Origin: an uncultured Verrucomicrobiae bacterium
Lineage (GTDB): Bacteria > Verrucomicrobiota > Verrucomicrobiia > Palsa-1439
DNA: 64,000 bases
Direction of reading: 5' to 3'
NCBI GenBank assembly: GCA_963812605.1
Contig: CAWEWF010000014.1
Location: 160,001 to 224,000 of the forward strand
The notes under the pieces were generated by a model that did no database searches, had not been told where the DNA came from, and saw nothing but the letters and a program-made list of their open reading frames with translations. The position numbers and the translations under genes were made by a program. Positions 5,023 to 61,047 of the stretch are shown here, in pieces. The stretch's first letter is position 1; each line of letters opens with the position of its first letter.

Positions 5023-5499
5023 TCATTGCCCGCCCAGCGGGTGGTAGTTCTTATGGATCTTGTCCAAGATTTGATTCGCAGAAGGTGTGACGATCGTCTT
5101 TACGAATGGAGTCCACTTTAAATCGGTGCCGCAAGCATGGATGAAAAGCTCGCGGACACCCCCTCTGGGAAAAATAGGGGTGAACCGCGCCACCGCGACT
5201 TTATCGGTTGAAGCGAATCGTCCATCCTTTGTTGTCATTGCGAAGCCCCGGCCGTTCATGATGTTGTTGGTAGAATCGATGAAGTACTCAACGGACCAGA
5301 TTTTAACAGAGGCATTAGTGGAAACAGCGCGCACGCTCACTTCTACCTGATTGTTGTTGGTGCGGATAACCGAAGCCTCGCTCAAGATGATGTCGGTGCC
5401 ACCAGTTGCAGCCCAAGGACAGGAAATCATGGCGAAGAGCAGCACTACCACGAGTCCAAGTTGCCTGGTTCCAAAGCTCAGTGTACGGACTGGATTCAC
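5023..5499 (-). CDS. Hypothetical secreted protein (Ig-like beta content)
   Basis: Hydrophobic signal-like segment. The likely GTG start (5499) overlaps the stop codon of the duplicated icd 3' end. Confidence 0.5.
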
Positions 5500-5670
5500 A
5501 TCTTGCTTATCACCGCATCGCCAAACTCGGAGCACTTCACTTTCTTCGCTCCCTCCATCTGCCTTGCGAAGTCGTAAGTGACGGTCTTGGCGTTGATGGC
5601 CCCGTCCATGCCTTGGAGAATGAGGTCGGCGGCTTCGGTCCAGCCGAAGCAGTGGAACGTCATTTCGCCG
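5496..5670 (-). repeat. Diverged second copy of the icd 3' end (icdC-like fragment); direct repeat of 6236-6409
   Basis: Translates [57 protein letters not shown], versus icd [56 protein letters not shown]. Confidence 0.95.
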
Positions 5671-5893
5671 CAGTCAGTTCGCGAGCGTGCAGGACTTCGT
5701 GACCGGAGAGCGAGCGCACCTTGTCAGCTTCTAACGACAGCACAGCGATGGTTTTGCCGTCGGATGTCATGAACTCGACCTCGTAACCTTCGCCGTTACC
5801 GTGCACCATGACGGCAGTACCAATGTCGCCGGCCACGAGGCCGTGCATTGGCAGATCAACCGTCAGGGCTACCAGATCCAACTCCTTAATCAT
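5660..5893 (-). CDS. DUF4926 domain protein (putative antitoxin/immunity protein)
   Basis: [37 protein letters not shown]...DGKTIAV matches the DUF4926 pattern. Confidence 0.85.
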
Positions 5894-5905
5894 AACGGGA
5901 ATCTA

Positions 5906-6231
5906 TCATGGTTTGGTAGGGTATGCAGTAACAAAGTGGGGCGGTGGCCGGTCGTCGCGCAAAATCCAGATTGTGGTAATGGCCAGGCTGCCGCTCCGCG
6001 ATGGGATGCTACCGCGCACAACAAACTTGCGGCCAAAGGGCGACGGCAGTTCCTGCGCGCGTCGGACTCTCGCGCGAGTTGAAGCAAAACGTCCACGAGA
6101 CGCTGTGCCGTGTACCCGGCGGTGACGAAGACGCGTTGTTTGTGCCGACCATGAGCGTGTGTGGCGCTGAGCAAGTACCGCTCAATCTTGTTTCTCTCGA
6201 CGACGGCGTGCTCCGCGTCTGGCAATTTCAT
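5906..6231 (-). CDS. DUF6883 domain protein (putative nuclease-type toxin), frameshift near 6060
   Basis: MKLPDAEHAVVERNKIERYLLSATHAHGRHKQRVF; after the shift SPFGRKFVVRG...TIWIL.....PHFVTAYPTKP*. Confidence 0.75.
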
Positions 6232-6235
6232 CGCG

Positions 6236-7525
6236 TCACATCTTCTTAATCACCGCATCGCCGAACTCGCTGCACTTGACTTCCTTCGCGCCTTCCATCT
6301 GCCGGGCGAAATCGTAGGTGACGGTCTTGGCGTGATCGCGCCGTCCAGGCCCTTGAGGATCAGATCGGCGGCTTCGGTCCAGCCCAGGTAGCGGAACATC
6401 ATTTCGCCGGAGAGGATGACGGAGCCGGGGTTGACCATGTCCTTGTTGGCGTACTTGGGCGCGGTGCCGTGGGTGGCTTCGAAGATGGCGTGGCCGGTGA
6501 TGTAGTTGATGTTGCCGCCGGGCGCGATGCCGATGCCGCCGACCTGCGCGGCCAGCGCGTCGGTGAGATAATCGCCGTTGAGGTTCAGCGTGGCGATGAC
6601 GTCGAAGTCCTCGGGCGGGTGAGCACCTGCTGCAGCGTGATGTCGGCGATGGCGTCCTTGATGACGAGGCCCGCGCCGGGTTTGCCTTCGGGAATCTTGC
6701 ACCACGGGCCGCCGTCGATCTCCGACCGCGCCGAAACGCTCCTTGGCGAGCTCGTAGCCCCAGTCGCGGAAGGCGCCCTCGGTGAACTTCATGATGTTGC
6801 CCTTGTGGACAATCGTGACGCTCTTGCGCTTGTTCGTGATGGCGTAGAGGATGCGGCGTGGATCAGGCGGTTCGTGCCGAGATAGCTGACCGGCTTGATG
6901 CCGATGCCGACATCCACGTCCGGGCGGTGCGGCGCGCCGATGGCCTCAAGCTGCTTCAGCCACTGCGCCGCCGCTTCTTTGGTTCCGAAGCGGATTTTCT
7001 TGAATTCCTTGGGAAATTCCTTCGCCAGGAAATCGAGGATCTTCTGCGCTTCGGGCGTGCCGCCCGCGTACTCGATGCCGGCGTAAATGTCCTCGGTGTT
7101 CTCGCGGAAGATGACCATGTCCACCTTCTCGGGATGCTTCACGGGCGAAGGCACGCCCTTGAACCAGTGCACCGGGCGCAGGCAGACGTAGAGATCGAGC
7201 ATCTGGCGCAGCGCGACGTTGAGCGAGCGGATGCCGCCGCCGACGGGCGTGGTGAGCGGGCCTTTGATGCCGACGAGGTAATCCTGGAACGCCTCGACCG
7301 TGTCGTCGGGCAGCCAGTTGTTGAATTTCTTGAAGGCCTTCTCGCCGGCAAAAACCTCCATCCAGGCGATCTTGCGTTTGCCGCCGTAGGCTTTCTTCAC
7401 CGCCGCGTCGAACACGCGCTCGGCGCGGCCCAGATGTCGGGGCCGGTGCCGTCGCCGCGGATGAAGGGAATGATGGGATTGTCGGGAACGTTCAGTTTGC
7501 CGTTTTGAATGGAAATCTTTGCCAT
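6236..7525 (-). CDS. icd: NADP-dependent isocitrate dehydrogenase (several single-base frameshifts)
   Basis: [65 protein letters not shown]. Confidence 0.95.
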
Positions 7526-7560
7526 GAATTGTGGTTCTCCTCGCCTAAAAAAGTGCCGCG

Positions 7561-7588
7561 ATGATAGCAGAGAGCACAGGGCAGTCAA
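7561..7588 (-). promoter_or_regulatory. Sigma70 promoter of icd
   Basis: TTGACT-16 nt-TATCAT with an extended -10 TG; GAGGAG SD before the ATG. Confidence 0.6.
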
Positions 7589-7640
7589 CCTTGCGTGAGC
7601 AGCATTGCCTTCGCGCGGCGTCCGTCGTATCGTGCGACCC

Positions 7641-8451
7641 GTGGGTTACGCGATTTTGTTTCGCCAGTTTCCCCTCGATCAACTGGATGCGCTGGCGCCG
7701 GTCGTTGCGGGGATTTACGGCATCAACGATTACGACGCGCGCACGAAGATCCGCAAAGGCTGGGGATTTCTGGAGCGGGACGCCTCGAAGGAAGACGCGC
7801 TCCGAATCGTGGAAGGCGTGGGCGATTATGCTGGCGGCGTTGTCTGCATAGACAACACCGCGCTCCGCATGCCCGGCGGGAACCGCGCGTGACCACGGGA
7901 GTCGAGTTCGCGCCCAACGGTTTCACGCTGCGCTTGCAATCGACCGAAAGATCCCACCCGTTTCCTCGAATGGGCACAGGTGGAAGTGGTGTCCGCGGGC
8001 CAGTTTTCGGAGGAGATTATCAAACGCGTATCGGGTGGCGACGAAAAGAAAATGGGGGCGATGATGCTGGGCGTCGGCGTATTTCTCGCCACCGGCATAC
8101 CGCCCGGCCTGCTGGGCGGCGGCAAGAAAAAGAAGAAGGAAGCCAAGCCCGAGAAAACCATGCGCACGATCACCTTCGGCCGGATCGTCACGATCACCGG
8201 CGAACAGTTTGCCTTCGGTCCCGAGCACTTTGATTTCTCCGGCCTGGCCGAGAAAAAGCAGTTAAACACCGGCGCCAACTTCCGCGTGCTTCTCGCGGAA
8301 TTGGCCGCTGACATCCGCCAAGGTGAACCGCGGCGCGCGCCTCCTGCTGGACAACCGCTCCCTGACCTTCGCCAACTACGCCGGCCCGCACGACTTCGAA
8401 ACCGAATTGCTTTGGCTGCTAAATGTCCCGCGTGGTGATAGCGCCGAATGA
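7641..8451 (+). CDS. Hypothetical protein (frameshifted); probable distant paralog of 19306-20064
   Basis: Pieces in ORFs 7605, 7595 and 7980 join into one reading ending [33 protein letters not shown]. Confidence 0.55.
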
Positions 8452-8474
8452 ATCGGGCAGCGTGACGTGGAATC

Positions 8475-9313
8475 TTATTTCGCGCCGGGGACATCCACGC
8501 GGGCGCGGTAGAGACCGGTGCGGGCGCAGATGTAGAGGGTTTTGCGGTCGGGGTCGCCGAAGGCGACGTTGGCGGGGCGCTCGGGCAGGGTGATTTCGCC
8601 AAGCTGCTTTCCGGTGCGGTCAAAATTTCGACCGATTTCATTGCGGAAATGTAAAGGGTGCCTTCGACGTTAACCCGGAAGCCGTCGGGGCGTTCTACTT
8701 TGCAGAAAACACGACTGTTTGTAATGCTGCCGTCAGCGTTTACATCAAAAGCGCGGAGGTGACCGAGTTCCGTGTCGGCGATGTAGAGAATTTTTTCGTC
8801 GGGCGAAAAAGCGAGGCCGTTGGGTTTGACGAAGTCCCGCGCAACCAGGGTGAGTGTCTCGCCCTTCGGCGACACGCAGAACACACCTTGGAAATCCAAT
8901 TCGCGCAGATCCGGCTTCACGCCGTAGGGCGGATCGCTGAAATACACCGAACCGTCGCTTCGACACACGATGTCATTGGGGCTGTTAAGCCGCTTGCCTT
9001 CATAGTGTGTGGCCAGCGCGTTGACCGTTCCGTCGTGCTCGGTGCGCGAGGTGCGACGGTTTTCGTGTTCGCAAGTGACGAGACGGCCCTGCGGGTCGAG
9101 CGCATTGCCATTGGCCTGACCGCTGGGTTCGCGGAAAATACTGAACGAATTGGTCGCCGGCGTGTAGCGGCGAATACAACTGGCCGGAATATCGCTGAAG
9201 AGCAGTTCGTTCCGTGCCTGTACCCACACGGGTCCTTCCAGAAATTGGAAATTTCCCGCAATTTTTTCAGCTACTGTGGCGAATGTTGATGATGTCGCCG
9301 TCTTCCACGACAT
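8475..9313 (-). CDS. SMP-30/gluconolactonase/LRE family protein (frameshift near 8620; start uncertain)
   Basis: FLEGPVW, LLFSDIP, LNSPND, YFSDPPYG, PNGLAFSPDE, PDG; C-terminus PANVAFGDPDRKTLYI. Confidence 0.9.
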
Positions 9314-10355
9314 ACTCTTTGCCTTTGACATGGAGCTTGCCAGTTTCCTTGAGCTTTACTTCCGCGGCGTGCCCGGTGTCGGCAGCCCCGATCAGGTCGC
9401 CGTATTTCATCACCTCGGCGCGGATGAAACCGCGGGCGAGGTCCGAGTGAATGGCGTGCGCTGCGTCGACGGACGTGGCGCCGTGACGAATGGTCCAGGC
9501 GCGGACTTCGTCTTCGCCGCTCGTGAAAAACGAGATGTAACCGAGCGCCTTGTAGAGAAAACGCGTGAGAATGTTAATCGCTGGTTCGGTGATGCCGAGC
9601 GCGGCCAGGAATTCGGCGCGTTCGGCGGGATTCTCGATCTGCGCGACCTCGGCCTCGGTCTTGGCGCTGAGTTCGCAGACTTCGGAACGCGGGCCGGTGA
9701 GTATCGCCTGGGCGGCTTGCACCAGCTTCGGGTTTGGGAAATTACTTTCGCCACAATTGAGGGCGGTGACGATGCCCTTGACCGTGAGAAACTGCAACGA
9801 GCGCATTCGTTTTTCTTCACCCTCATGCCAGGCATATTCGCGGAGTGATTTTCCAGCTTCCAGATGCGGCTTGAGTTTTTCCAGCAGCGCGGCTTCGTCG
9901 GCGCGTTCCTGCTCGAACTTGCGTTTCTGGTCCTGCGCGATGCGATTGAGTCGCGTCTCGATGAGACTGAGGTCGCTGATGGCGAGTTCCAGATTCATCG
10001 CCTCGATGTCCCGCAGTGGATCGACCGAGCCGTTCACGTGAAACACGGCCGGATTTTCGAAGGCCCGGACGACGTGGCAGAATGCATCCATGTCCTTCAA
10101 CTTGTTGAGCCATTGCTCGCGCGGCTTTGGCTCGTGAGGCGGGGCGGGGGCGAGCGTACACTCGATCTCGGCGTACTTCGTCTTCTTCGGATTGTACATC
10201 GCCGAAAGCCTGTCAATACGCTGGTCGGCGACCTTGACCGTACCGATGTGGTATTCGGTGGCCCGGCCAAGCAAGTGGTCAACCCCCACACCTGTAAGCA
10301 GGGAGAAGACCGTCTTTTTGCCGACTTGTGGCAGGCCAATGAGCGCGATTTTCAT
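9267..10355 (-). CDS. ychF: Ribosome-binding ATPase YchF (OBG family), somewhat divergent P-loop
   Basis: GLPQVGKKT, HVVRAF, FFTSGEDEVRAWTI, IHSDLARGFIRAEV, GKEYVVEDGDII. Confidence 0.9.
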   Translation of the reverse strand: MKIALIGLPQVGKKTVFSLLTGVGVDHLLGRATEYHIGTVKVADQRIDRLSAMYNPKKTKYAEIECTLAPAPPHEPKPREQWLNKLKDMDAFCHVVRAFENPAVFHVNGSVDPLRDIEAMNLELAISDLSLIETRLNRIAQDQKRKFEQERADEAALLEKLKPHLEAGKSLREYAWHEGEEKRMRSLQFLTVKGIVTALNCGESNFPNPKLVQAAQAILTGPRSEVCELSAKTEAEVAQIENPAERAEFLAALGITEPAINILTRFLYKALGYISFFTSGEDEVRAWTIRHGATSVDAAHAIHSDLARGFIRAEVMKYGDLIGAADTGHAAEVKLKETGKLHVKGKEYVVEDGDIINIRHSS

Positions 10356-10380
10356 AGCGAAAGCCTGACAGCGTGGAAGG

Positions 10381-11553
10381 TCACGCCTTCAGGCTTTTGC
10401 AAAAGGCCTCGATGCGGTCGAGACCTTTCTGGATGTTCTCCATCGAACAGGCGTAACTGAGGCGCAAGTGCGCATCGCTACCGAAAGCGATGCCGGGGAC
10501 CGCCGCAACCTTCTGATCATCCAACAGCTTTGAACAGAAAGCGGTTGAGCCCAGGCCGAACGCGGAGATATTGGGCAGCATATAGAACGCGCCCAGCGGC
10601 TTCACGCAGGTAATGCCCGAAATCTTTGTGAGCCGATCGTACATGTACGCGCGACGTTCGGTGAAGGCCTTGACCATCTCGCCGATGAACGATTGGTCGC
10701 CTTTCAATGCCGCGAGTGCGCCTTTCTGGGCGAAGCTGGTCGGATTCGAAGTCGAGTGCGACTGGATCGAGTCAATCGCGGCGGCGATGTGCTCCGGCGC
10801 GGCGATGTAGCCCAGACGCCAACCGGTCATCGCATACGCTTTACTGAAGCCGTTGACGGTGATCGTCAGGTCGTAAATTTCACTGCCCAAGGACGCGAGG
10901 CTGACCGACTCGGTGCCGTCATAGACGACTTTCTCGTAAATCTCATCCGACAGCATGAGGATATCCTCTTCCAGCGCCACTTCCGCGAGGGCTTGCAGTT
11001 CCTCGCGAGTGTAAACGGAGCCGGTCGGGTTGCCGGGCGAATTGAGGATGATGAGCCGGGTTGCCGGTGTCATCGCCTCGCGGAACTGGTCCGGTGTGAT
11101 CTTGAAGCCGTTCTCTTCCCTGGTTTCGACGGTCACAGGCGACGCATCGGCGAGCTTGACCATTTCCGGGTAGCTCAACCAGTACGGCGCCGGGATAATG
11201 ACCTCGTCACCCGCCTGGCAGGTTGCCAGGATGACATTGAAACACGAATGTTTCGCGCCACAATTGACGATGATCTGCGATGCCTTGTAGTCGAGGCCAT
11301 TCTCGTTCTTCAACTTCTCCGCGATGGCCGCGCGCAATTCCGGAATGCCCGAGGAAGGCGTGTACTTCGTGAAGCCCGCGGCCAGCGCCTGGGCGGCGGC
11401 GTCCTTGATGTATTGTGGGGTATCGAAATCGGGTTCGCCAGCGCCGAAGCCGCAGACGTCAACGCCTTCCGCTTTGAGTTTTTTGGCTTTCGCGTCGATG
11501 GCGAGGGTCAACGACGGGGTCAGGGTAGTGGCGCGTTGTGCGAGCTGTTGCAT
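10381..11553 (-). CDS. aspC: PLP-dependent aspartate aminotransferase (class I/II)
   Basis: GEPDFDTP, NSPGNPTG, SDEIYEK, FSKAYAMTGWRLG. Confidence 0.9.
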   Translation of the reverse strand: MQQLAQRATTLTPSLTLAIDAKAKKLKAEGVDVCGFGAGEPDFDTPQYIKDAAAQALAAGFTKYTPSSGIPELRAAIAEKLKNENGLDYKASQIIVNCGAKHSCFNVILATCQAGDEVIIPAPYWLSYPEMVKLADASPVTVETREENGFKITPDQFREAMTPATRLIILNSPGNPTGSVYTREELQALAEVALEEDILMLSDEIYEKVVYDGTESVSLASLGSEIYDLTITVNGFSKAYAMTGWRLGYIAAPEHIAAAIDSIQSHSTSNPTSFAQKGALAALKGDQSFIGEMVKAFTERRAYMYDRLTKISGITCVKPLGAFYMLPNISAFGLGSTAFCSKLLDDQKVAAVPGIAFGSDAHLRLSYACSMENIQKGLDRIEAFCKSLKA

Positions 11554-37461: not shown

Positions 37462-38280
37462 ATGGAGCCACTTGGCATTATTGCAGGAAACGGCGATTTT
37501 CCCCTGATCCTGGCCCGCTCGGCGCGTCAACTTGGTGGCGGGCGGACCGTCGCGGCGGCGTTCGAGGGGGAAACGAAGCCGGAAATTGACGACGCGGTCG
37601 ACGAGGTTGAATGGATCAAGCTTGGCCAACTCAACAAGCTGATCGAAGTCTTCACTTCACGCCGCGTGAAGCGCGCCGTAATGGCGGGCGGCATTACGCC
37701 CTCGAATCTTTTCAAGAACCTGCGGCTTGATCTGCGCATGACGACCGTCGCCTTGCGCCTCAAGGAACGCAATGCCGAGACGATCTTTGGCGCGATCGCC
37801 GCCGAGATGGCGAAGGACGGCGTCGAACTCATCGACCCGCGTCCATTCCTCGGCGACTCCGTCCCGCAGCCCGGTGTGCTCACCCGTCACAAGCCGGACA
37901 AGGACCAGCGGGCCGATGTTGAATTCGGACTGAAGATCGGCAGGGCCGTCAGCGGGCTCAATATCGGCCAGACGGTCGTCGTCAAGAAGGGCACGGTGCT
38001 GGCGGTGGAAGGTTTTGAGGGCACGGACGAGTGCATCCGCCGCGGCGGCGCACTGGCGGGCGAGAAGGGCGGCGCGGTGGTCGTCAAGGTCAGCAAAGCG
38101 CAACACGATTTTCGGTTCGATATCCCGTGCCTCGGGGAGAAAACGGTCGAGTCATGCCGCGCGGGAAAGATTTCTGTGTTCGCGATGGAAGCGGGCCGAA
38201 GCCTGCTGCTCGACAAGGACAAGTTGCTACAGGCCGCGAACGAAATGGGGTTGTGCCTGGTGGCGGTGCCTTCCGCATGA
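37462..38280 (+). CDS. lpxI: UDP-2,3-diacylglucosamine pyrophosphatase LpxI
   Basis: LGIIAGNGDFP, IGQTVVV...AVEGFEGTD, DFRFDIP; next to lpxB. Confidence 0.9.
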   Translation: MEPLGIIAGNGDFPLILARSARQLGGGRTVAAAFEGETKPEIDDAVDEVEWIKLGQLNKLIEVFTSRRVKRAVMAGGITPSNLFKNLRLDLRMTTVALRLKERNAETIFGAIAAEMAKDGVELIDPRPFLGDSVPQPGVLTRHKPDKDQRADVEFGLKIGRAVSGLNIGQTVVVKKGTVLAVEGFEGTDECIRRGGALAGEKGGAVVVKVSKAQHDFRFDIPCLGEKTVESCRAGKISVFAMEAGRSLLLDKDKLLQAANEMGLCLVAVPSA

Positions 38281-39302
38281 GCGATATCCTCAAAGTCGGC
38301 GTGGTAGGGGTCGGGCAGCTGGGCTCGCAACACGCGCGCATTTATTCCGAGTTGGCCAAGCGTTCCAACGGCCTATATTCGTTCGTCGGCGTGTTTGATA
38401 CTGATAACATTCGCGTGCGGGCGCTTACGGAAAAGGTCGGTGGCGGCGCGTTCGAGAGCGCGGTGGAGCTGGCGAACTTTGCGGACGCGGTCAGCGTGGC
38501 CACGCCCACGGAGACGCATTACAAGGTCGCGCGCGTATTTCTGGAGCGCGGCAAGCACGTGCTGGTGGAGAAACCGATCACCGACAGCCTCAGCGAAGCC
38601 GAAGAACTCGTCGCGCTGGCGCGGAAGAACAAGTGCGTGTTCCAGGTTGGCCACGTCGAGCGCTTCAACCCGGTCATGCGTTACTTGAATGAAGTGCTGG
38701 AAGAAGCGCGCTTCATCGAAGTGCACCGCCTCTCGCCGTACCCGGGCCGCTCGACGGACATAGGCGTCGTGCTCGATTTGATGATTCACGACCTCGATGT
38801 GGTCTTGTCGCTGGTGAAATCGCCGCTGGTGTCTGTCGATGCGGTCGGCATCCCCGTGCTCAGCGCAAGCGAAGATATTGCCAATGTGCGATTGAAATTC
38901 GCCAACGGCTGCGTGGCCAATATCACCGCCAGCCGTGTATCGGCGGAAAAGATGCGGAAAATCCGGGTATTCGGACGCACCGCGCACGGCGCCGCCTACG
39001 TGTCGCTCGATTACATGAAACAGGAGGGCGAGAGTTATCGGGTCGCCGCCGAAGATGCGCAGGAATCCGGTTTGCTGAAGAAACTGCTGGCGGGCAAGCA
39101 CGCGAGCATTGTCAGCGAATTCGCGGGCAGAAAAATCGTTCGCGAACCGGTCCCCATTGAACGCGACGAGCCGCTCAAACTGGAGTTACAACATTTCCTC
39201 GACGCGATCCGTTTCCACCGCGACCCGCTGGTCACCGGCGAAGCCGCCAAACAGGCCCTCGAAGTGGCGATGGAGATCACCGAGCAGATTTCCCACGCCT
39301 AG
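38277..39302 (+). CDS. Gfo/Idh/MocA oxidoreductase, possible GnnA (UDP-GlcNAc 3-dehydrogenase)
   Basis: GVGQLG, VEKPI, VGHVERFNP, LDLMIHDLD; lies between lpxI and lpxB. Confidence 0.8.
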   Translation: MSDILKVGVVGVGQLGSQHARIYSELAKRSNGLYSFVGVFDTDNIRVRALTEKVGGGAFESAVELANFADAVSVATPTETHYKVARVFLERGKHVLVEKPITDSLSEAEELVALARKNKCVFQVGHVERFNPVMRYLNEVLEEARFIEVHRLSPYPGRSTDIGVVLDLMIHDLDVVLSLVKSPLVSVDAVGIPVLSASEDIANVRLKFANGCVANITASRVSAEKMRKIRVFGRTAHGAAYVSLDYMKQEGESYRVAAEDAQESGLLKKLLAGKHASIVSEFAGRKIVREPVPIERDEPLKLELQHFLDAIRFHRDPLVTGEAAKQALEVAMEITEQISHA

Positions 39303-39350: not shown

Positions 39351-39386
39351 TCCGTTCCCCTCCTTGGAGGGGCAGGGGTGGGTTCC
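39351..39386. repeat. Left inverted repeat (palindromic, REP-like) of the DUF559 cassette
   Basis: TCCGTTCCCCTCCTTGGAGGGGCAGGGGTGGGTTCC closely matches the reverse complement of 39795-39833. Confidence 0.85.
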
Positions 39387-39427: not shown

Positions 39428-39892
39428 ATGCGGGATCGGATCATCCCCTATAATCCCGACTTGAAGGAACGCGCTCGCATATTGCGCAAGAATATGACCC
39501 GCGCGGAAGCGTTGCTGTAGACGAAGCTGAACAGAAAGCAAATGTGTGGCTACGACTTCGACCGTCAGCGGCCACTGGACGAGTATATCGTGGATTTTTA
39601 CTGCAAGGAATTGCGTCTGGCGATTGAGATCGATGGCTGGAGTCACGCGCTGAAGGGAGCGCGCGATGTTGAGCGGCAGAGACGACTTGAAGGTCTTGGT
39701 GTGTGGTTCTTAAGGTTCACCGAGCAGGAAGTTGTCGCTGACTTGCAGTCAGTGGCGGATCAGATTGAGATGTGGATTCAACAACAGACCGGAAGGAAAC
39801 CCACCCCTAACCCCTCTGGGGGAGGGGAACGGAAAAGGACGGTACGGAAACACACCCATAGCCCCTGCAAAGGGGAAAAGCGAATGGTATGA
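39428..39892 (+). pseudogene. DUF559 (Vsr-like PD-(D/E)xK) endonuclease with an in-frame TAG at 39518
   Basis: IIPYNPDLKERARILRKNMTRAEALL*TKL...FDRQRPL..YIVDFYC..LAIEIDGWSH; the TAG replaces the family's conserved Trp. Confidence 0.85.
39795..39833. repeat. Right inverted repeat of the DUF559 cassette
   Basis: GGAAACCCACCCCTAACCCCTCTGGGGGAGGGGAACGGA; a degenerate extra copy follows at about 39846-39879. Confidence 0.85.
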
Positions 39893-40973
39893 AACCTCGC
39901 TCCCTCATGTTCATTGCCGGTGAAGCCTCGGGCGACGCACATGCGGCGGAACTCATCAAGGCGCTGCGGGCGCAGGCGCCCGAGGTAAAGGTCTTTGGCG
40001 CGGGCGGGCCGAAGATGGAGGCGGCGGGGATGGAGTTGTTGCTGGATCTCACCGAGCATGCGGTGGTCGGCTTGTCGAGGTGCTGAAGAACTATGCCAAG
40101 TTTCGCCGACTTTTCTGGGACCTGGTGCGCGTGGCGGAGAGGCGGCGGCCGGACGCGGTGGTGCTGGTGGATTTTCCGGGGTTTAACCTGCGGTTTGCCG
40201 CGCAGATGAAGCAGCGCGGAATTAAAGTCATCTACTACATCTCGCCGCAGTTGTGGGCCTGGCACGCGAGCCGTGCCAAACAGATTGAGCGCGACGTGGA
40301 CTTGATGCTCTGCATTTTCCCGTTTGAGAAGGACTGGTACGCCAAACACGCACCCAAGTTACGCGTGGAGTTCGTTGGTCATCCTTTTACGGAAAGGATG
40401 AAGACGGAGGACCGAGAGGTGAAGCGGGAAGAGAAACTCGTCCTGCTCTTGCCCGGCAGCCGCGAGCGCGAAGTGGCGAAGATTTTTCCGATCATGGCGG
40501 ACGCGGTCGAACGGATGCCGACGGACGTGAAGTTCGTCGCGGCGGCGGTGAATGAGTCCTCAGCGGCGATGATGAAGCACTCGCGCATCACGGTGGAAGC
40601 TGGCAATGCGCACGAATGGATGCGGCGGGCCACGTTGGCGATCACCGCCAGTGGGACGGCCACGATGGAATGCGCGTTCTACGGCTGTCCGATGATCGTG
40701 GTCTACAAAGTGAACTGGCTGACGTATCTCATTGGCCGCCTGGTTGTGCAGGTGGACTGGCTCGGCATGCCCAACGTGATTGCCGGCCGCGAAATCGTGC
40801 CGGAGTTTCTCCAGCACGACGCGAAACCCGAGCGCATCGCCGCCGTAGCGCGTGAGTTATTGGAGAACAACGCAAAACGCGAAGCAATGCAGCGAGAATT
40901 GGCAACAGTTGTTGGAAGTCTCGGCGGAACTGGCGCCAGCGAGCGCGCTGCTCAACTAATTCTTGCGCGTTAG
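39889..40973 (+). CDS. lpxB: Lipid-A-disaccharide synthase (frameshift near 40075)
   Basis: AGEASGD, DFPGFN, SPQLWAW, IFPFE, FVGHP, LPGSR, SGTATME. Confidence 0.95.
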
Positions 40974-54456: not shown

Positions 54457-54465
54457 GTGGCGATG

Positions 54466-56043
54466 TCATTTCTTTTTCTCGTCCTGGAAGAGTTTGTATT
54501 CAACGGAATCCACCAGGGCTTCCCAACTGGCCTCGATGATATTATCGTGCACGCCGACCGTGCCCCAGGTGTCGGTGCCGTCGGTGCTCTCGATGATGAC
54601 GCGGGTCTTGGCGGCGGTGCCACTGTGGCTGTCGAGGATGCGCACCTTATAGTCGATCAGTTGCACCTGGGCGATTGCGGGATAGAACTTTAGCAGCGCT
54701 TCGCGCAAAGCCTTGTCCAAGGCGTTGACGGGGCCGTCGCCATTGGCCACGGTATGTACAGCCTCGCCGCCGACCTCGAGTTTGACGCTGGCTTCGACGA
54801 CATTGTCGCCATCAGCGCCATGCTTGTCCATGATGACACGATAAGCTAGCAGTTTGAAAAACGGGGTGTGGCTTTTGAGCAGCTTCTGGACAAGGATGTG
54901 GAAACTGGCGTCGGCAGCTTCGTATTCGTAGCCCGCGTTTTCAAGCTGCTTCAGTTGCTGAAGGATGTCGCGCACTTCCGGCGTGTCCTTGCTGAGGTCC
55001 ATGCCCAGCTCGTGCGCCTTCATCAAAATGTTGCTGCGACCGCTCAATTCGCTCACTAGCACGCGGCGATGATTGCCGACCGTCTCCGGCTCGATGTGTT
55101 CATAGCTGCGCGCGAGCTTCTCGATGGCATTGACGTGGATGCCGCCTTTGTGCGCGAATGCCGTCGCGCCCACGAATGGCTGACGGATGTCATGGCGCAC
55201 GTTCGCGAGATCATCGACAAACATCGACAGATCGCGCAGCCGACGGACATTGTCCTTCGAGATGCAGTCATAACCCATCTTCAGCACGAGACAGGGGATG
55301 ACGGTGGTCATGTTGCAGTTGCCCGTGCGTTCGCCGTAACCGTTGATCGTGCCCTGCACCTGCACCGCGCCGGCTTCGATGGCGGCGAGCGCATTCGCGA
55401 CGCCGACACCGGAATCATTGTGGGTATGGATGCCGACCGCGCACTTCATCTGCTGAATAACGTCCGCGGTGATGCGGCTGACTTCGCCGGGCATCGTGCC
55501 GCCGTTGGTGTCGCAGAGGACCACGATATCGACGCCCGAATCCTGCGCGGCCTTCAGCGTGGCCATTGCGTAACGCGGGTCGTCCTTATAACCATCAAAG
55601 AAATGCTCGGCGTCGTAGACGACTTCCTTGCCATGTTCCTTGAAGAACCGGACGGAATCGCCGATCATCGCCACGTTTTCCTCGGGCGTGGTGCGAATGA
55701 CTTCCTTAACGTGCAAGGACCACGTCTTGCCCACGAGGGTGACGACGGGTGTGTTGGCTTTGATCAGCATGTCGATCTGGGGATCATCCTTGCACTTGGT
55801 GTTCGCGCGGCGGGTACTGCCAAAGGCCGCGACTTTCGCCTGCTTGAATTTTCGCTTGGCCGCCTCGGTGAAGAAATCCATGTCTTTCGGATTTGAACCC
55901 GGCCAGCCGCCTTCGATGTAATGGATGCCAAACGCGTCGAGCCGCTCGGCAATTCGAATCTTGTCCGCGCTCGAAAACGAGATGCCTTCGCCCTGCGCCC
56001 CGTCACGGAGCGTCGTATCATAGATGGAGATCTTCCTGCTCAT
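54466..56043 (-). CDS. cimA: Citramalate synthase
   Basis: YDTTLRDGAQGEG, EGGWPGSNPKD, YDAEHFFDG, HTHND, FAHKGGIH, C-terminal regulatory domain. Confidence 0.92.
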   Translation of the reverse strand: MSRKISIYDTTLRDGAQGEGISFSSADKIRIAERLDAFGIHYIEGGWPGSNPKDMDFFTEAAKRKFKQAKVAAFGSTRRANTKCKDDPQIDMLIKANTPVVTLVGKTWSLHVKEVIRTTPEENVAMIGDSVRFFKEHGKEVVYDAEHFFDGYKDDPRYAMATLKAAQDSGVDIVVLCDTNGGTMPGEVSRITADVIQQMKCAVGIHTHNDSGVGVANALAAIEAGAVQVQGTINGYGERTGNCNMTTVIPCLVLKMGYDCISKDNVRRLRDLSMFVDDLANVRHDIRQPFVGATAFAHKGGIHVNAIEKLARSYEHIEPETVGNHRRVLVSELSGRSNILMKAHELGMDLSKDTPEVRDILQQLKQLENAGYEYEAADASFHILVQKLLKSHTPFFKLLAYRVIMDKHGADGDNVVEASVKLEVGGEAVHTVANGDGPVNALDKALREALLKFYPAIAQVQLIDYKVRILDSHSGTAAKTRVIIESTDGTDTWGTVGVHDNIIEASWEALVDSVEYKLFQDEKKK

Positions 56044-56055
56044 TCGCAAGGTAAG

Positions 56056-56084
56056 AGACTAAAACCAACTGCCTTGCCCGTCAA
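56056..56084 (-). promoter_or_regulatory. Sigma70 promoter of cimA
   Basis: TTGACG-17 nt-TAGTCT. Confidence 0.55.
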
Positions 56085-56268
56085 CTGCGCTGTTGGCAGG
56101 CCGTTTTCTACCCGTCGTGCCGCCGTTGGTAAGTGCGTCTCCCTGGTCACGGCAGCTTCCCCTGGTAAAAAATCCGGCCGGTTTTTCGAGGGCGAACGCC
56201 TAAGCCATTCCAAAAGCGCCACTTAACTGTGGGGTTCGTTTCGTAATTTGTGTGTTTTGTGCGTGAAA

Positions 56269-57202
56269 TCATCTCCTCGACACCTCCATCGTCAATGGCG
56301 GCGGCACGTTCTCCCCGGCGCGCCGACGCTGTAACCTCTCCAGTTGGTTCATCGCCCGATACATCTGCCGGTCCAGCGCGGTCTCATATCGCAGGATCTT
56401 CTCCAGCACCGCCGTTTCCGGTAATATATTCGCCGCCTGCTGTGCCATTTCCTCCTTGTCCTCCCGTTCCTCGCGCAGCCGCCTCAGTTCCGCGTAGGAC
56501 TCGAGTTCCAGTTCAAGAAAACCCAACACCGCCCGCTGGTGGTTGCCCTTCGATTCTTCCTTGCTTAATCCGTTCGCATTGGCCACAAATCTCTCGCGGT
56601 ATCCCGCTAACGCCCGGATCAACGAATTCGGTTTGCCGGCGAATCGTTGTAAGACCCACTCACACATTGTCTCCGTCAACTCACCATCGCGCTGGACACC
56701 TTCCCTGACCTTCTCCAACACATGCCGCAGGTACTGGAGGCCCTGGCTCGACTTCGTCATCTCCTCCGCCACGTCATGGAGGTTGTCCAGGAATGTCATG
56801 ACCGATATCGGCTCGCGGCTCTCCCGTTTCCATCGCCCGCCGTCCACGCTCAGCGCGATCTCTCCCGTCTCCGCCAGCAACACCCGTCGCAACCGCCACT
56901 GCATCGTCACGATCCGCTCGACCAGCATTTCCTCCACCGGCCCTTCCGGTGCCAGGCTCTCCCAGAACCGCGCCCGCAACGCCTTGAACTCGTCCTCTCG
57001 CTCCTGGATGCGCAACCCCCGCACCACCACTTCCGCCGACAGGATCCCATGCTTCACCGCGTTCATCCGCGCAGCCGACTTACCCGCCAAACTCAGCGGC
57101 CCCGTCGCTCCGCCGGGCCGTTCTCCGATGGCCCGGCCTCTTTTTCACGGCTACCGCCTTCGCTGGTGCGACTGCCTCAGTAACTGCATCATTGGGAATC
57201 AT
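56269..57202 (-). CDS. Hypothetical helical protein with GK..A.MNA.KHG motif (5' part frameshifted)
   Basis: GKSAARMNAVKHG...P.GPVEEMLVERIV..QWRLRR...ILRYETALDRQMYRAMNQLERLQ; AGGA before the ATG at 57202. Confidence 0.7.
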
Positions 57203-57363
57203 GGCTCTGTCCTTTCCTGGGGGTGGTACGGAGGAGTCGTCACGTTGTGCGCCGGTCCCTCGTTGCATTGGTCTGCATTCATCCGCTACCGATAGTCACA
57301 CAGTATAACACTATCGAATAACGATGACAAGTGATGAAATACCCTCGCTATCCGATTGGTGGT

Positions 57364-57456
57364 GTAGCCACGGCTTTATGAGCCGTGCAGAAGCGCGCAA
57401 TGGTGTAGCCACGGCTCGATGAGCCGTGCGGAAGTGCGCCTCGCAGAGGCGCGCTA
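57364..57456 (+). repeat. Tandem GTAG-type REP-like palindromes (41-bp period)
   Basis: GTAGCCACGGCT-TTATG-AGCCGTG at 57364 and GTAGCCACGGCT-CGATG-AGCCGTG at 57405, then hairpin GCGCCTC-GCA-GAGGCGC. Confidence 0.75.
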
Positions 57457-57572
57457 GCGATTCACGCCGAAAACTTTCGGAGTGCCAAATACCACCGGCG
57501 CGGCTATACTGCCCGTCATAGAAAGGAAGCGTTTGATTCGATCTCGGAACCTAAAAGTGGTACCCAGTTCCC

Positions 57573-57853
57573 ATGAAAACTGGTCATAACAGTTATCCCT
57601 ACGCTCAATGCGCTGATCGGATTGCTACTTAATCCGTTTAGACATGAGAAACATAGCTGACATTTTCGTCATTTGAGGCTCGCAACCATCCGATATGGCT
57701 GGCTTGCATTGTGGGATTTATCGTTAGCAAAGTCAACATATAGGTTACGACGCAAACACCTCTCTGTATGGAAAGAATGCGGTTCTCCTACTCTGTTTAG
57801 TGGTTTTTGGCCTACTCATGCGATTTGGAGGTCCGTGTGAACTACTTTGGTGA
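57573..57853 (+). pseudogene. Possible fragmented small membrane-protein gene in an AT-rich island
   Basis: Hydrophobic pieces in shifting frames: LVITVIPTLNALIGLLL / IWLACIVGFIV / NAVLLLCLVVFGLLM. Confidence 0.3.
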
Positions 57854-58038
57854 TGTAAATAACAAAACTCTGCAAGTTTATTAAATGGTTCTATGTTGTG
57901 TACTGTTACCAGCTTGGCGGTACGTGGCGATAATGTTTTTTACCTCAATTGATTTAGGGCATATGTGAGATATCGAGTCAAGTAAAGTGCCATTCATTAA
58001 AGGTGACAACCGAAAGATGTCAGTACACCAATAGCGGG

Positions 58039-58727
58039 GTTCCATCCACAGCGCAAGCCGTCTTCGTGTCTGATTTAAGCAACTCGTGGCACCTTCTACA
58101 TCCCCGCCGTTTTCGCCGTCCGCCGCACCACGTCGAACGAAGAGGAATTCGGGCAGGTCTCAACATCAGACAATTGGCCCAAGAATATTTATCGTTGGTC
58201 ATTGGGGTCAACTCCGTACTCTGGACAGATTTTGGAGGCGCACCAAAAAAGTTCGCTTTTCATTGTCAGTGCCTAAGCGCTCAGCAAACGCCATCATCAC
58301 CCGGTGCCGCAGTTCCATCCACAGCGCAAGCCGTCTTCGTGTCTGATTTAAGCAATTCGTGGCAACGTCTACATCCCTGCCGTCCTGGCGGTGCGCCGTA
58401 CCACGTCGAACAGGCTGTCCTCGGCGATGACGTGGCCGGTCAGCTTCTTCTTGCTGTTGGCGATGATCTGGCGTCCGGCTGGGGATTTGTCCATGCCCAC
58501 CAACGCTCTGGACAGATTTTGGAGGCGGACCAAAAGGGTTCGCTTTTCGTCATCAGGGCTAAGCGCTCAGCAAGGGTCATCATCACGCCTACATTCCCGC
58601 CGTTTTCGCCGTCCGCCGCACCACGTCGAACAGGCTGTCTTCGGCGATCACGTGGCCGGTCAGCTTCTTCTTGCTGTTGGCGATGATCTGGCGGCCGGCT
58701 GGGGATTTGTCCATGTCCACCAATGCT
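58039..58727. repeat. Mosaic repeat array A-B-X-C-A-B-C-B (B = phnD-like 3' end)
   Basis: A at 58039-58095 and 58312-58368; B at 58096-58138, 58369-58507 and 58589-58727; C at 58219-58300 and 58506-58586. Confidence 0.9.
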
Positions 58728-58954
58728 GTCTGGATCTTGCAATCGCCGTAGTCCTTGGCGATGTAGAGCACGACCTTCTGCCCGATGGCATCAGAAAGAT
58801 AGGCCGCGAGCGGGTCGAACTCGGCCCGCATTTCCGCTTCGCCGAGGACGGGAGTGAAGCCGAATTTCAGGTCGCGCGCGGCGGCGGGGCGAACGGCGAG
58901 TCGATGATGAAAACCGTAAGGACCAACAAAGCCGTTTGACGAGGGCGTCGTCAC
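58589..58954 (-). pseudogene. Internally deleted PhnD-like phosphate/phosphonate ABC substrate-binding protein
   Basis: N-terminal LKFGFTP....MRAEFDPLAAYLSDAIG.KV.....DY is fused directly to C-terminal KIQTALVDMDK...DSLFDVVR; the central part is missing. Confidence 0.65.
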
Positions 58955-58958
58955 GCAC

Positions 58959-59423
58959 CTACTTCTTCTCTGCCGTGCTGGCCTGGCGCTTCTGGGCGAA
59001 CTCCGCTGATTCGATCAGGAGTTGGTTGTTCTTCTCGGTGTAGGTGGCGATCAACTTGCCGTCGGCGCTGGTCCAGTGGCGGTTCCCGTCCCTGGTGTCT
59101 TTGATTTCCGTCCAGCCGCCTTCGGGGGCAGCAGCTTTGAGGGAGGCTTCGATCTCCACGTTTTCCATTGCGACCTCGCCAATATCGCCGTCTTCCTCGA
59201 TCGTCTCGACCAGTTCGTAGGCTGCCTTGCCGTCAACGAACCCGACAAAGATGGCGAGATCGTCCTGCCGGTACTGGTAGGCGGCGGTGGCCGGCGCGAA
59301 GGGTTTCGCAACCTTCACGTGCTTGCCGTAGCGGGCCTCGGTTTGCGGCAGGTCCTCGCCGATCTTTGCGTGGCAGGCGGACGCGGCGAGGAATACTGCG
59401 GAAGCGAGTGGCAATAATTTCAT
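58959..59423 (-). CDS. Hypothetical exported protein
   Basis: Signal peptide MKLLPLASAVFLAASACHA; AGGA SD; directly after lysC. Confidence 0.7.
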   Translation of the reverse strand: MKLLPLASAVFLAASACHAKIGEDLPQTEARYGKHVKVAKPFAPATAAYQYRQDDLAIFVGFVDGKAAYELVETIEEDGDIGEVAMENVEIEASLKAAAPEGGWTEIKDTRDGNRHWTSADGKLIATYTEKNNQLLIESAEFAQKRQASTAEKK

Positions 59424-59433
59424 ATCCTGTTCC

Positions 59434-60648
59434 TTATTTGCCCAATTCGAACGCATCGTGAACGGCGCGGGCGGCTTTGTCGGCGTCCTTCAGCCCGATG
59501 ATGACGGAGATTTTGATCTCGCTGGTGGAGATCATGTCGATGTTGACACCCGTGGCCGCAAGTGTCTCGAACATTTTAGCGGCCACGCCGGGGTGCGAGC
59601 GCATGCCGATGCCGACGACGGAGAGCTTGGCGATTTCCACCGTGGAAGTGACCTCGCGCGCGCCGATTTCCTTGACGATGGGCTGTAGGGCTTTCGTGGC
59701 TTTGGCCGCTTCGCTGGACCCGACGGTGAAGGAGATGTCGGTGAATCCTTTCTCGCTGACGTTTTGCACAATGACGTCGATGTTGATATGGGCGTCGGCG
59801 ATTGTCTTGAAGACCTTCGCGGCGATGCCGGGTTTGTCGGGCACGCCGGCGATGGTGACTTTGGCCTGGTTCTTGTCAAGCGCGACGCCGCGGATGACCA
59901 CATCTTCCATTTTTGCGGTTTCTTCTTTCACAATAGTCCCCGGGTTGTCGTTGAAACTGCTGCGCACTTCGAACACGACGCCAAACTTTTTGGCGAACTC
60001 AACCGAGCGCGCCTGCATCACCTTCGAGCCCAGCGCGGCCAGTTCCAGCATTTCGTCATAGCTGATTTCCGCGAGCTTGCGCGCGTTGGGCACGATGCGC
60101 GGATCGGAAGTATAGACGCCATCCACATCGGTGTAAATCTGGCAGAGGTCGGCCTTGACGGCGGCGGCGATGGCGATGGCGGTCAAATCGCTGCCGCCGC
60201 GACCCAGCGTGGTAATCTGGCCGTCCGCCGTTTCGCCCTGAAAGCCGGCGATGGTCACGATGTTGCCGTTGTTGAGGAACTCGTGGACTCGTTTCGGCGT
60301 GATGTTGGCGATCTTGGCCTTGGTGTGGAGGCCGTCGGTGACGATACCGGCCTGCGCGCCGGTCAAGGACACGGCTTGTGCGCCGAGCGAATGCAGCGCC
60401 ATGGCGAGTAGCGCGATGGTCGTTTGTTCGCCCGTGGCGAGCAACATATCCATCTCGCGCTCGTTCGGTTCGGGATGGACTTCCTTGGCGAGTTTGATGA
60501 GCGAATCGGTCACGCCGCTCATCGCCGAGACGACGGCGACGACTTTATTGCCCGCTTGCTGCGTGGCCAACACGCGGCGCGCGACGTTCTTGATGCGCTC
60601 GGGATTACCGACCGACGTCCCGCCATATTTTTGTACAATGAGAGCCAT
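59434..60648 (-). CDS. lysC: Aspartate kinase
   Basis: VQKYGGTSV, TTLGRGGSD, two ACT domains, STSEIKIS. Confidence 0.97.
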   Translation of the reverse strand: MALIVQKYGGTSVGNPERIKNVARRVLATQQAGNKVVAVVSAMSGVTDSLIKLAKEVHPEPNEREMDMLLATGEQTTIALLAMALHSLGAQAVSLTGAQAGIVTDGLHTKAKIANITPKRVHEFLNNGNIVTIAGFQGETADGQITTLGRGGSDLTAIAIAAAVKADLCQIYTDVDGVYTSDPRIVPNARKLAEISYDEMLELAALGSKVMQARSVEFAKKFGVVFEVRSSFNDNPGTIVKEETAKMEDVVIRGVALDKNQAKVTIAGVPDKPGIAAKVFKTIADAHINIDVIVQNVSEKGFTDISFTVGSSEAAKATKALQPIVKEIGAREVTSTVEIAKLSVVGIGMRSHPGVAAKMFETLAATGVNIDMISTSEIKISVIIGLKDADKAARAVHDAFELGK

Positions 60649-60655
60649 TTTATTA

Positions 60656-60684
60656 ACCGCGAATGAACGCCAATAAACGCTAAT
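60656..60684. repeat. Inverted repeat at the 3' end of the GxxExxY gene
   Basis: ACCGCGAATGAACGCCAATAAACGCTAAT; 23/29 identical to the reverse complement of 61019-61047. Confidence 0.85.
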
Positions 60685-61030
60685 CGGAGAGCACGACTCG
60701 CCGATATTCCAGTTTCGGACGCCGGAAATTCAAGATGATTCCAAGTTCCAGCCTGGCGATACGCAGGTAGTTCATTACCTGCCCAAGTTCGGCGTCCGAA
60801 ACGGCTTCGATTACCTTCGTGTCCACAATGACCTTGTCGTCTACCAACAGGTCGGGGATGTATTCGCCGACCACGACGTTCTTGTATAGCACCTTAAATC
60901 GCTTCTGTTGACCGACCGCAATTCCCCGCACATTCAGTTCTGCGACGAGCGTATTCAATACCTCCATCGCGGCACCGACGATTTCAAACGAAAGTTCTTT
61001 ATGAAGAACTTTCGTTTCATTCACGTTCAT
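60680..61030 (-). CDS. GxxExxY-family PD-(D/E)xK nuclease-like protein lacking its namesake motif (possibly inactivated)
   Basis: LSFEIVGAAMEVLNTL|VAEL..RGI...Q....V.YK...GEYIPDLLVDDKVIVDTK....GQVMNYL......GIILNF. Confidence 0.8.
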   Translation of the reverse strand: MNVNETKVLHKELSFEIVGAAMEVLNTLVAELNVRGIAVGQQKRFKVLYKNVVVGEYIPDLLVDDKVIVDTKVIEAVSDAELGQVMNYLRIARLELGIILNFRRPKLEYRRVVLSD

Positions 61031-61047
61031 TAGTGTCCATTCGCGGT
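61019..61047. repeat. Inverted repeat at the 5' end of the GxxExxY gene
   Basis: Reverse complement ACCGCGAATGGACACTAATGAACGTGAAT contains the ATG start. Confidence 0.85.

Follow-up and report, generated by a model that had tools for sequence, protein, structure and literature searches.

Predicted nuclease and toxin-immunity cassettes between housekeeping genes of an uncultured Verrucomicrobiae bacterium

Closest described systems and the inserts of the window

Repetitive extragenic palindromic (REP) and REPIN elements are accompanied by RAYT transposase genes of the Y1 HUH type. The intrastrand-triplex repeats BoxC, PIT, and TM_ECO have been linked to genomic instability (PMC4666352), and the consensus of the triplex motif (TM) TM_ECO is a C-block, 3 to 6 nucleotides (nt), a G-block, 3 nt, and a second G-block (Holder et al. 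2015, PMC4666352). The authors of this study write that they never found mobility functions in the vicinity of TM repeats, and the main text of this paper does not contain the word “endonuclease” and hence names no nuclease partner (PMC4666352). A survey of the PD-(D/E)XK fold lists PDDEXK_3 as “unknown” and includes a group I intron homing endonuclease in its Vsr/DUF559 group (PMC3424549). Addiction modules, namely restriction-modification units, are described as inserted with a long target duplication and without mobility genes (Furuta, Abe and Kobayashi 2010, PMC2853133). The prophage e14 is located in icd of E. coli together with an icdC pseudogene, and the modelled icd-icdC chimera around e14 contains a duplicated stretch that is given as 19 protein letters (PMC13626634). 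The subject here is a stretch of 64,000 nt from an uncultured Verrucomicrobiae bacterium, the window, which contains three small inserts between housekeeping genes: a GxxExxY (PDDEXK_3) gene between thrC and lysC, a DUF559 gene between a Gfo/Idh/MocA oxidoreductase gene (Gfo) and lpxB, and a DUF6883-DUF4926 gene pair behind icd.

The window comprises positions 160001 to 224000 of contig C14 of a 4.17-Mb genome bin of 15 contigs that is 90% complete. This source genome is labelled G000; the other G numbers are genomes of the comparison set, L numbers are loci, and C numbers are contigs of G000. The nearest named relatives according to LysC, with 88 to 90% identity, are metagenome-assembled genomes (MAGs) labelled Verrucomicrobiia.

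The original prediction had described three nuclease or toxin inserts of 0.4 to 0.7 kb, co-oriented within housekeeping transcription units and without a recombinase nearby. A Pfam scan of the 73 open reading frames (ORFs) of the window and a reading of the sequence agreed with this description: the inserts and their boundary repeats exist as described (Table 1), and each cassette immediately follows the stop codon of its upstream gene. Integrase, transposase, and resolvase families had no match among the 73 ORFs, and the 12 genome-wide matches of PF00589 (tyrosine recombinase) were all outside the window. A presence/absence comparison also indicated that the inserts are accessory, with each of the three cassettes absent from the same junction in most relatives. 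The idea of one general system of nuclease cassettes could not be maintained. DUF6883 is assigned to RNase toxins and its boundary is a direct duplication, and the junction between Gfo and lpxB takes up non-nuclease cargo in 3 of 28 genomes. In the reading that is considered the probable one, two unrelated classes of inserts share the niche between co-transcribed housekeeping genes, class A with a nuclease gene and its arms and class B with a toxin-immunity pair.

Table 1. Features of the three cassettes, their host genes, and the phnD region, in positions of the window
Feature	Position	Strand	Basis
Cassette 3, 5' array, three ~10-nt units, contains the start codon of the gene	61019..61050	-	Inverted-repeat search
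Cassette 3, GxxExxY/PDDEXK_3 gene, 116 amino acids, 13-codon in-frame deletion removing the GxxExxY motif	60680..61030	-	Profile and orthologue alignment
Cassette 3, 3' array, inverted copy of the 5' array	60653..60684	-	Inverted-repeat pair I1
Cassette 2, left arm, three-block triplex-motif (BoxC-like) variant	39354..39386	+	Inverted-repeat score
Cassette 2, DUF559 gene (Vsr-like PD-(D/E)XK fold), putative pseudogene, in-frame TAG at 39518-39520	39428..39892	+	PF04480, read through
Cassette 2, right arm, inverted copy of the left arm, within the 3' end of the ORF	39798..39833	+	Inverted-repeat score
Cassette 1, DUF6883, predicted BECR-Tox3 RNase toxin gene, frameshift near 6059	5890..6231	-	PF21814; preprint assignment
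Cassette 1, DUF4926, presumed immunity/antitoxin partner	5660..5893	-	PF16277
Cassette 1, pseudo-icd, direct duplicate of the last ~58 icd codons, starts at the DUF4926 stop codon	5496..5673	-	Repeat alignment
thrC (3' part), upstream host gene of cassette 3	61054..61914	-	PALP match; orthologues found
lysC, downstream host gene of cassette 3	59434..60648	-	Pfam scan
Gfo/Idh/MocA oxidoreductase gene, upstream host gene of cassette 2, last codons and stop cassette-derived	38031..39302	+	Pfam; filled versus empty alleles
lpxB, downstream host gene of cassette 2, frameshift near 40080	39889..40973	+	Pfam scan, sequence
icd (isocitrate dehydrogenase), host gene of cassette 1, six 1-nt indels	6236..7531	-	Iso_dh on 6250-6792; start estimated from C15 alignment
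Apparently decayed phnD, internally deleted ORF 58589-58954 and two further 3'-end/spacer copies; not a cassette	58039..58954	-	Repeat and congener comparison

GxxExxY and DUF559 genes between inverted repeats

The GxxExxY gene of the window matched PF13366 with 83.4 bits (cutoff, 22) and TIGR04256 with 90.6 bits (cutoff, 35), covering only profile positions 28/30 to 117. Compared to the orthologues in G016 and G033, in which the name-giving motif is intact, 39 nt including this motif are missing from the window copy, and the deletion is bounded by short direct repeats. The PD...VDTK / VELK columns of the PD-(D/E)XK core are retained, as read from the alignment; a catalytic role of these columns is assumed here from the general picture of this fold. 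Judged by its sequence, the window copy should be a dead relic. A search with the G016 protein did not return a solved structure at E values up to 0.01. The two arms of 32 nt are 78% complementary and are the first-listed of 12 inverted repeats in the whole window. Of the lysC loci of relatives, 30 were compared, and 17 of these contained thrC as well; 15 junctions were empty with spacers of 3 to 49 nt, and 2 were filled (G000 and G016). An orthologous cassette in G033, a genome of a different genus, is positioned directly upstream of lysC but behind a different gene, and thrC was not found on the 4-kb lysC locus of this genome.

One low-depth soil-metagenome contig (run X2) joins both GxxExxY arms at window positions 60684/61018 with 9 letters between them. 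The match is 30 nt on the shorter side with 85% likeness, which hints weakly at the existence of a hairpin form without the gene in some organism. Among the sequencing runs listed as matching there was no RNA data set, only soil-metagenome contigs (about 10% of the sampled words); aligned at 85% likeness, these cover mainly lysC and thrC of relatives and are uninformative on the population of the window.

PF13366 was present in 40 of 61 genomes, and 32 copies were read. The arms exceeded the best of 30 shuffles in 30 of these copies, in two of them by one point only, while those of L045 and L064 did not. The arms are designed as inverted arrays of two or three units of 8 to 11 nt with the core C-R-C-N-R-A-D, and a heptamer recurs at least three times over both arms in inverted sense in 27 of the 32 copies. 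When 21 copies from four genomes with five to seven copies each were compared, the copies within a genome mostly had different cores, each matched between its own two arms. Two subfamilies of the protein split with motif position 7 of the core. A column-by-column association between protein and motif follows these subfamilies, is confounded by descent, and was set aside. At one orthologous junction (L044, L047, L049, L051, L052, and L054), six genomes of different genera possess a GxxExxY cassette, with the arm core CACAGAT in three and CACGAAT in the other three, both arms having changed in concert. This junction is presumably that between nuoD and nuoE, and the outer ends of the arms appear to provide the stop codon upstream and a GTG start downstream. 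The upstream stop is positioned 44 to 64 nt before the Pfam match in 19 of the 26 copies with a co-oriented upstream frame, indicating that the array begins at or just after this stop.

The DUF559 gene of the window matched PF04480 with 102 bits at profile positions 3 to 107 when read through one TAG, which is a TGG tryptophan codon in five orthologues. This copy also appears to be a dead relic. The only solved relative found for DUF559 was 3HRL, matched with the G016 orthologue. The arms in the window are G+C-rich, and their inverted-repeat score of 42 compares to scores of 22 or less in 30 shuffles (L002). Three-block arms scoring above the shuffles were present in 22 of the 23 full-length copies but in none of the 6 weak or embedded-domain matches. 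The proposed association between repeat and gene family across genomes was, therefore, confirmed for GxxExxY (30 of 32) and DUF559 (22 of 23) and is missing in case of DUF6883, which has a direct duplicate of the 3' end of the host gene instead.

The TM_ECO consensus matched 8 of the 212 examined loci, all 8 being DUF559 loci in which every match adjoins the gene, except for one match in each of two loci. The arms of these DUF559 cassettes in relatives agree exactly with the published consensus (PMC4666352). In contrast, the arms of the window are a shorter variant that fails the strict consensus, with blocks of 7 to 8 nt and loops of 2 nt, and L002 and L069 did not yield a match. At least 11 solo TM-like repeats of the window-arm variant were present in G000 compared to 0 in the shuffled genome. 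In L099, L101, L111, and L126, DUF559 matches reside within open frames of 725 to 1231 amino acids, and the cassette seems to be read through in frame; the sequence after one of these matches reads presumably like a type I methylase.

Both Gfo and lpxB were found at 28 loci, with DUF559 between them in 6 cases, an empty junction in 19, and other cargo in 3. The two genes overlap by about 4 nt at GTGA or ATGA in many of the empty junctions. In the filled alleles, it is the cassette that contributes the last codons and the stop of Gfo as well as the lpxB start, and these differ from those of all empty alleles. The other cargos (L074 in G001, L089 in G021, and L088 in G030) are not nuclease genes. 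As identified by eye, two of them are related repeat-rich lipoprotein-like genes ending with ...FRW, and the third is Hsp70-like, with a direct duplicate of the 5' end of lpxB at its flank.

A class A cassette would consist of a single small nuclease gene of the PD-(D/E)XK fold between family-specific terminal inverted repeats and would dock at the upstream stop codon. A DUF559 cassette would supply a new stop to the upstream gene and a new start to the downstream gene, and expression of class A genes should occur by read-through from the host operon. The filled and the empty form would be alternative alleles of a junction that are gained and lost repeatedly among related genomes, with recombination in the conserved flanks as the most likely route. 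Like a homing endonuclease or a RAYT-type enzyme, the nuclease would probably recognize either the arms of its cassette or the empty site, and by this analogy it may act on its own arms.

A small gene between inverted copies of a short repeat, a repeat that follows the lineage of the gene, and the additional solo repeats (at least 11 TM-like ones in G000) resemble the REP/REPIN-RAYT system. The cassettes differ in that PF13366 or PF04480 with the PD-(D/E)XK fold is located between the arms and not a Y1/HUH transposase, that GxxExxY arrays have no solo copies in G000, and that the copies are mostly single, old, and site-bound. Homing endonucleases are similar because a nuclease gene is present or absent at the same conserved site, scattered on the host tree, and because many divergent lineages exist, each with its own site; moreover, a known homing enzyme, the Vsr-like endonuclease of a group I intron, has the same fold as the DUF559 group (PMC3424549). 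On the other side, there is neither an intron nor an intein here, and the cassettes possess terminal inverted repeats, which homing genes do not need. They also differ from integron gene cassettes, being single and not in arrays, with no integrase in the window.

The nuclease-plus-arms cassettes are widespread and apparently an undescribed kind of element: a literature search by family name, which covered titles and the openings of abstracts with subscription journals and supplements outside its reach, listed no publication on them. A bolder and rather doubtful proposal is that GxxExxY and DUF559 proteins are the missing enzymes of two very common classes of bacterial repeats, the inverted CRCNRAD arrays of 8 to 11 nt and the BoxC/PIT/triplex repeats, which have been familiar since the 1990s, and drive a homing-like, recombinase-free conversion of junctions, as a new selfish element of the PD-(D/E)XK fold. 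Each nuclease would recognize either its own arms, by their structure or sequence, or the empty junction. Provision of new stop and start codons would, according to this proposal, make the cassette harmless and allow it to be transcribed for free.

The DUF6883-DUF4926 pair behind icd and the phnD region

DUF6883 has been placed as BECR-Tox3 into the BECR-fold RNase toxins, with DUF4926 as the conserved immunity partner encoded downstream (10.64898/2026.08.28.747851). In the window, the start codon of DUF6883 is 5 nt past the icd stop codon. The gene matched with 46.6 bits, PF21814 positions 1 to 58 being in one frame and 62 to 110 in another, and DUF4926 matched PF16277 with 75 bits. DUF4926 is directly downstream of DUF6883 in 12 of 13 loci. 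Based on these family assignments, the pair should encode an RNase toxin and its immunity protein and not a DNA nuclease. As an RNase toxin with a direct target duplication and without an inverted repeat, DUF6883 would not be able to act on its own flanking DNA repeats.

The insert of cassette 1 has a size of 0.74 kb and includes a 178-nt direct duplicate of the icd 3' end. Positions 5496-5673 and 6236-6412 align in adjoining blocks of 98 nt with 86% and 80 nt with 83% identity, which is 84% overall. The duplicates at icd begin with the stop codon of DUF4926, some four codons ahead of the GWTEAADL region. Among the icd loci of 29 relatives, the pair follows icd only in G024; it is also at icd in G032 and on contig C15. 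Direct repeats of the end of the upstream gene flank 5 of the 13 pair loci, involving icd three times, xseA, and a metF-like gene. These duplicates have a length of 178 nt in the window, 172 nt on C15, and 97 nt in G032 at icd, of 118 nt at xseA in G033 (gene assigned by Pfam), and, behind the metF-like gene of G031, of 30 to 32 nt by blastn or about 50 nt by eye. The G031 host gene is called metF-like from the way it reads. There was no clear signal as to which icd copy is the “native” one, as the proximal and the distal copy have overlapping identities to relatives.

Other arrangements around icd ends and pairs were also observed. A 78-nt copy of the icd 3' end occurs 45 nt after the stop codon in G021 (L131) without cargo, and nested copies of the icd end surround a regulator-like gene, PadR-like by eye, in G031 (L157). 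G021 and G024 share a short tandem motif of the TTCATCC type downstream of icd. At L192 (G024:C190), copies of a 36-nt repeat surround a DUF6883-DUF4926 pair in the manner of a CRISPR-like array, one of them about 0.6 kb upstream and a dozen others, spaced at 66 nt, downstream.

Evaluation of frameshifts in the window needs to consider the quality of the assembly. Contig C15 (28.9 kb) is colinear with C14:142022-169278, which is window positions 1-9278 plus the region upstream, at about 90% identity, and carries intact icd, DUF6883 (113 amino acids), and DUF4926. Rather than a duplication, it appears to be a fragment of a related second population within the same MAG, which indicates that the bin contains part of this population. 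The alignment of icd with its C15 copy revealed six 1-nt indels and one 3-nt indel, that of DUF6883 one 1-nt indel, and valS (~52000) and lpxB (~40080) are each broken into two pieces by single-base indels. The 1-nt indels are thus located at 6059-7425, ~40080, and ~52000, and their density in icd is far above that in secA or lysC, where none was seen. They may be consensus errors at positions where two populations were mixed; those in icd are probably assembly errors, and the DUF6883 frameshift may be one as well. Because of the indels and the second population, frameshifts in the window were not counted as gene decay. The proposed inactivation of nucleases, consequently, applies to GxxExxY with its motif deletion and to DUF559 with its TAG, while the frameshift in DUF6883 is not trustworthy, given the assembly indels and the intact gene on C15.

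A class B insert would be an addiction pair whose insertion was accompanied by a long duplication of the host-gene 3' end. It may have arrived by homology-driven (Campbell-type) integration or may be the last remnant of an e14-like integrative element, retained because its loss would be toxic. Cassette 1 has the features used by Furuta et al. in 2010, which are addiction genes, an insert below 20 kb, a direct duplication above 30 bp, and no mobility gene. The similarity to insertion with long target duplication extends to a killing-type gene pair, a direct duplicate of more than 30 bp often overlapping the 3' end of a gene, and the missing recombinase (PMC2853133), and comprises cassette 1 and the relatives at xseA and the metF-like gene. 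Different are the cargo, a predicted RNase toxin-immunity pair instead of restriction-modification genes, and the divergence of the repeats (84 to 88%).

An array of phnD 3' ends downstream of lysC, which had been likened to the cassettes, was rejected as a cassette site. No nuclease or toxin gene is in this array, and congeners possess an intact phnD-like gene of about 300 amino acids right after lysC, followed in several of them about 65 bp further on by a leuA-like gene. Compared to these congeners, G000 has an extra ORF of 165 amino acids and an internal phnD deletion, plus two further copies of the phnD end with the spacer, which is single in G006. The copies of the 3' end are at 58585-58734, 58365-58512 (89%), and 58096-58138 (98% over 43 nt). 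The phnD repeats are best read as local decay with tandem duplications, although the tandem copies could have arisen through a fault in the assembly. Between phnD and the leuA-like gene (56090-58000), G000 has about 2.5 kb of extra DNA, partly with a low G+C content (0.51); it contains an ORF of 273 amino acids that had no match in Pfam and two hairpin repeats (57359-57453) that have relatives on C10 and C11.

Occupancy of the junctions and competing explanations

Independent assemblies contain each of the three cassettes at the same junction as well, GxxExxY in G016 and G033, DUF559 in five genomes, and the pair on C15 and in G024 and G032. Their occupancy was compared to a tree of 27 genomes based on LysC, LpxB, and Icd, which includes the flanking genes themselves. 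DUF559, with 6 filled junctions, needed a minimum of 5 changes on this tree, and the other two cassettes, with 3 filled junctions each, needed 3 and 3. Occupancy by DUF559 was no more clustered than that of shuffled labels (mean, 5.5 changes; 217 of 500 shuffles as low), and sister genomes differ in cassette occupancy. The empty junctions listed are all compact, and stop and start codons overlap in many of them; repeated deletion would hardly rebuild such a junction, while an exchange of alleles via the conserved flanks would readily restore it. In relative terms, the DUF559 cassette of G000 is much nearer to its counterpart in G033, a genome of another genus, than the flanks are: the ratio of the distance between G000 and G033 to the mean distance between G000 and its congeners was 0.64 (95% confidence interval, 0.53 to 0.78) for the cassette, 0.95 for lpxB, and 1.40 for lysC. 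No topological conflict between cassette and host trees was found; only these branch-length ratios differ. The nuclease cassettes are interpreted here as slow-turnover alleles of junctions, which would place them nearer to homing genes than to insertion sequences.

Several observations weigh against the two-class model. The six DUF559 cassettes, lpxB, and lysC gave the same unrooted topology, and the identities among the three GxxExxY cassettes (80.8, 79.2, and 76.0%) parallel those of lysC (86.4, 81.1, and 79.6%). Because topology and identities of the cassettes parallel those of host genes, long vertical residence with repeated loss explains much. Turnover at a junction does not need a nuclease, since the one between Gfo and lpxB also takes up non-nuclease genes. 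G000 contains neither another GxxExxY gene nor another inverted array pair of the GxxExxY type, and only 1 of 47 within-genome pairs of GxxExxY paralogues in four relatives was at least 85% identical, a count that left out four partial or contig-end copies (one each in G032, G058, and G018, plus the eighth match in G032). For both reasons, a recent burst of transposition was rejected. The single recent-looking pair, L200 and L201 in G058, is located at different loci, is 87% identical over 422 nt, and has about 10 nt beyond the arrays in common; no other sign of fairly recent copying was seen. Co-orientation with both neighbors, found for 24 of 31 GxxExxY and 16 of 23 DUF559 copies, is only moderately above the expectation from operon structure; the genes were called by a GC3-GC2 criterion (G+C content at third and second codon positions), which is crude and miscalls Gfo of the window itself, and several copies are orthologous sites and not independent cases. 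With respect to the pair, G024 has it at icd without a duplicate, and the 3- to 5-kb loci of the other carriers, in which no integrase was seen, do not reach far.

These points lend themselves to another explanation, in which the nuclease genes are old, vertically inherited host genes for repair, defense, or RNA processing that were lost at random, and the repeats are signals at the RNA level, such as a stem, an RNase III site, or a terminator, that uncouple the genes from the operon and are not mobile DNA. The shared topology, the parallel divergence of GxxExxY and lysC, the copies at orthologous sites across several genera, and the single recent pair among 47 agree with it, and vertical inheritance at fixed loci, which would speak against mobility, was to this extent found. 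This explanation is nevertheless unlikely. Empty junctions are compact on both sides of the tree, and an exact restoration by repeated deletion is improbable; the filled alleles differ in the Gfo ends and lpxB starts; and the DUF559 cassette of G000 is nearer to another genus than the flanking genes are. DUF559 cassettes occur also inside the long open frames, copies within a genome are deeply divergent with their own arm sequences, and solo arms are dispersed in the genome. An artefact of poor metagenome assembly by chimeric joins or collapsed repeats would be compatible with the second population in the bin at about 90% identity, the many 1-nt indels, and the phnD copies, but it is hardly credible as the origin of the three cassettes, being refuted for them by the same junctions in independent assemblies.

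Treating all three units as a single class of recombinase-free cassettes, in which each nuclease including DUF6883 acts on its own repeats in a RAYT/REP-like manner, has the appeal that all of them have a size of 0.4 to 0.7 kb, are co-oriented, start a few bases from a stop codon, are polymorphic, and lack a recombinase, and that two of the three families have a family-wide link between gene and repeat. DUF6883, however, is assigned to RNase toxins with an immunity partner, its boundary varies with the host gene (icd, xseA, metF-like) and therefore does not qualify as a conserved recognition repeat, there is no gene in the phnD array, and the GxxExxY arms resemble those of DUF559 neither in sequence nor in design. 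A single class is very improbable for these reasons, and one mechanism for all three units was rejected because their boundaries differ in kind and DUF6883 is a predicted RNase toxin. For cassette 1, an origin as the remnant of a larger, integrase-borne element of the e14/phage 21 type is conceivable but not what would be expected; such an element would have used the icd 3' region as attB and brought a replacement gene end before all but the addictive pair was deleted. Similar to e14, the same host gene is involved, about the same 3' stretch is duplicated with the functional copy on the gene side, and the duplicate, which covers the last ~58 codons, begins in the GWTEAADL region that is also duplicated in the modelled icd-icdC chimera (PMC13626634). 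The icd end is duplicated also in G021 without cargo and in G031 in nested form with a regulator-like gene. The insert has 0.74 kb compared to about 15 kb for e14 (PMC13626634), however, and contains no integrase, nor do the window or the 3- to 5-kb loci of other carriers. As the same pair with a duplicate is located behind two other genes, three elements would have had to decay to the same two genes. Insertion with long target duplication is favored for cassette 1 over an e14 remnant, given that the design is the same at three host genes.

For the window itself, the consequences of the two-class model are modest. Both nuclease copies appear to be dead, and the “general system” comes down to two classes plus one decayed gene. 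If selfish cassettes of a nuclease plus arms do exist, two large families without an assigned function would acquire a role, and the BoxC/triplex repeats, which have been linked to genome instability without a known partner, would gain a candidate enzyme (PMC4666352). Such cassettes would also illustrate a way for accessory genes into the tight junctions of essential operons that avoids polar damage. With the toxin-immunity pair, insertion with long target duplication would extend from restriction-modification units to modules of the toxin-antitoxin type.

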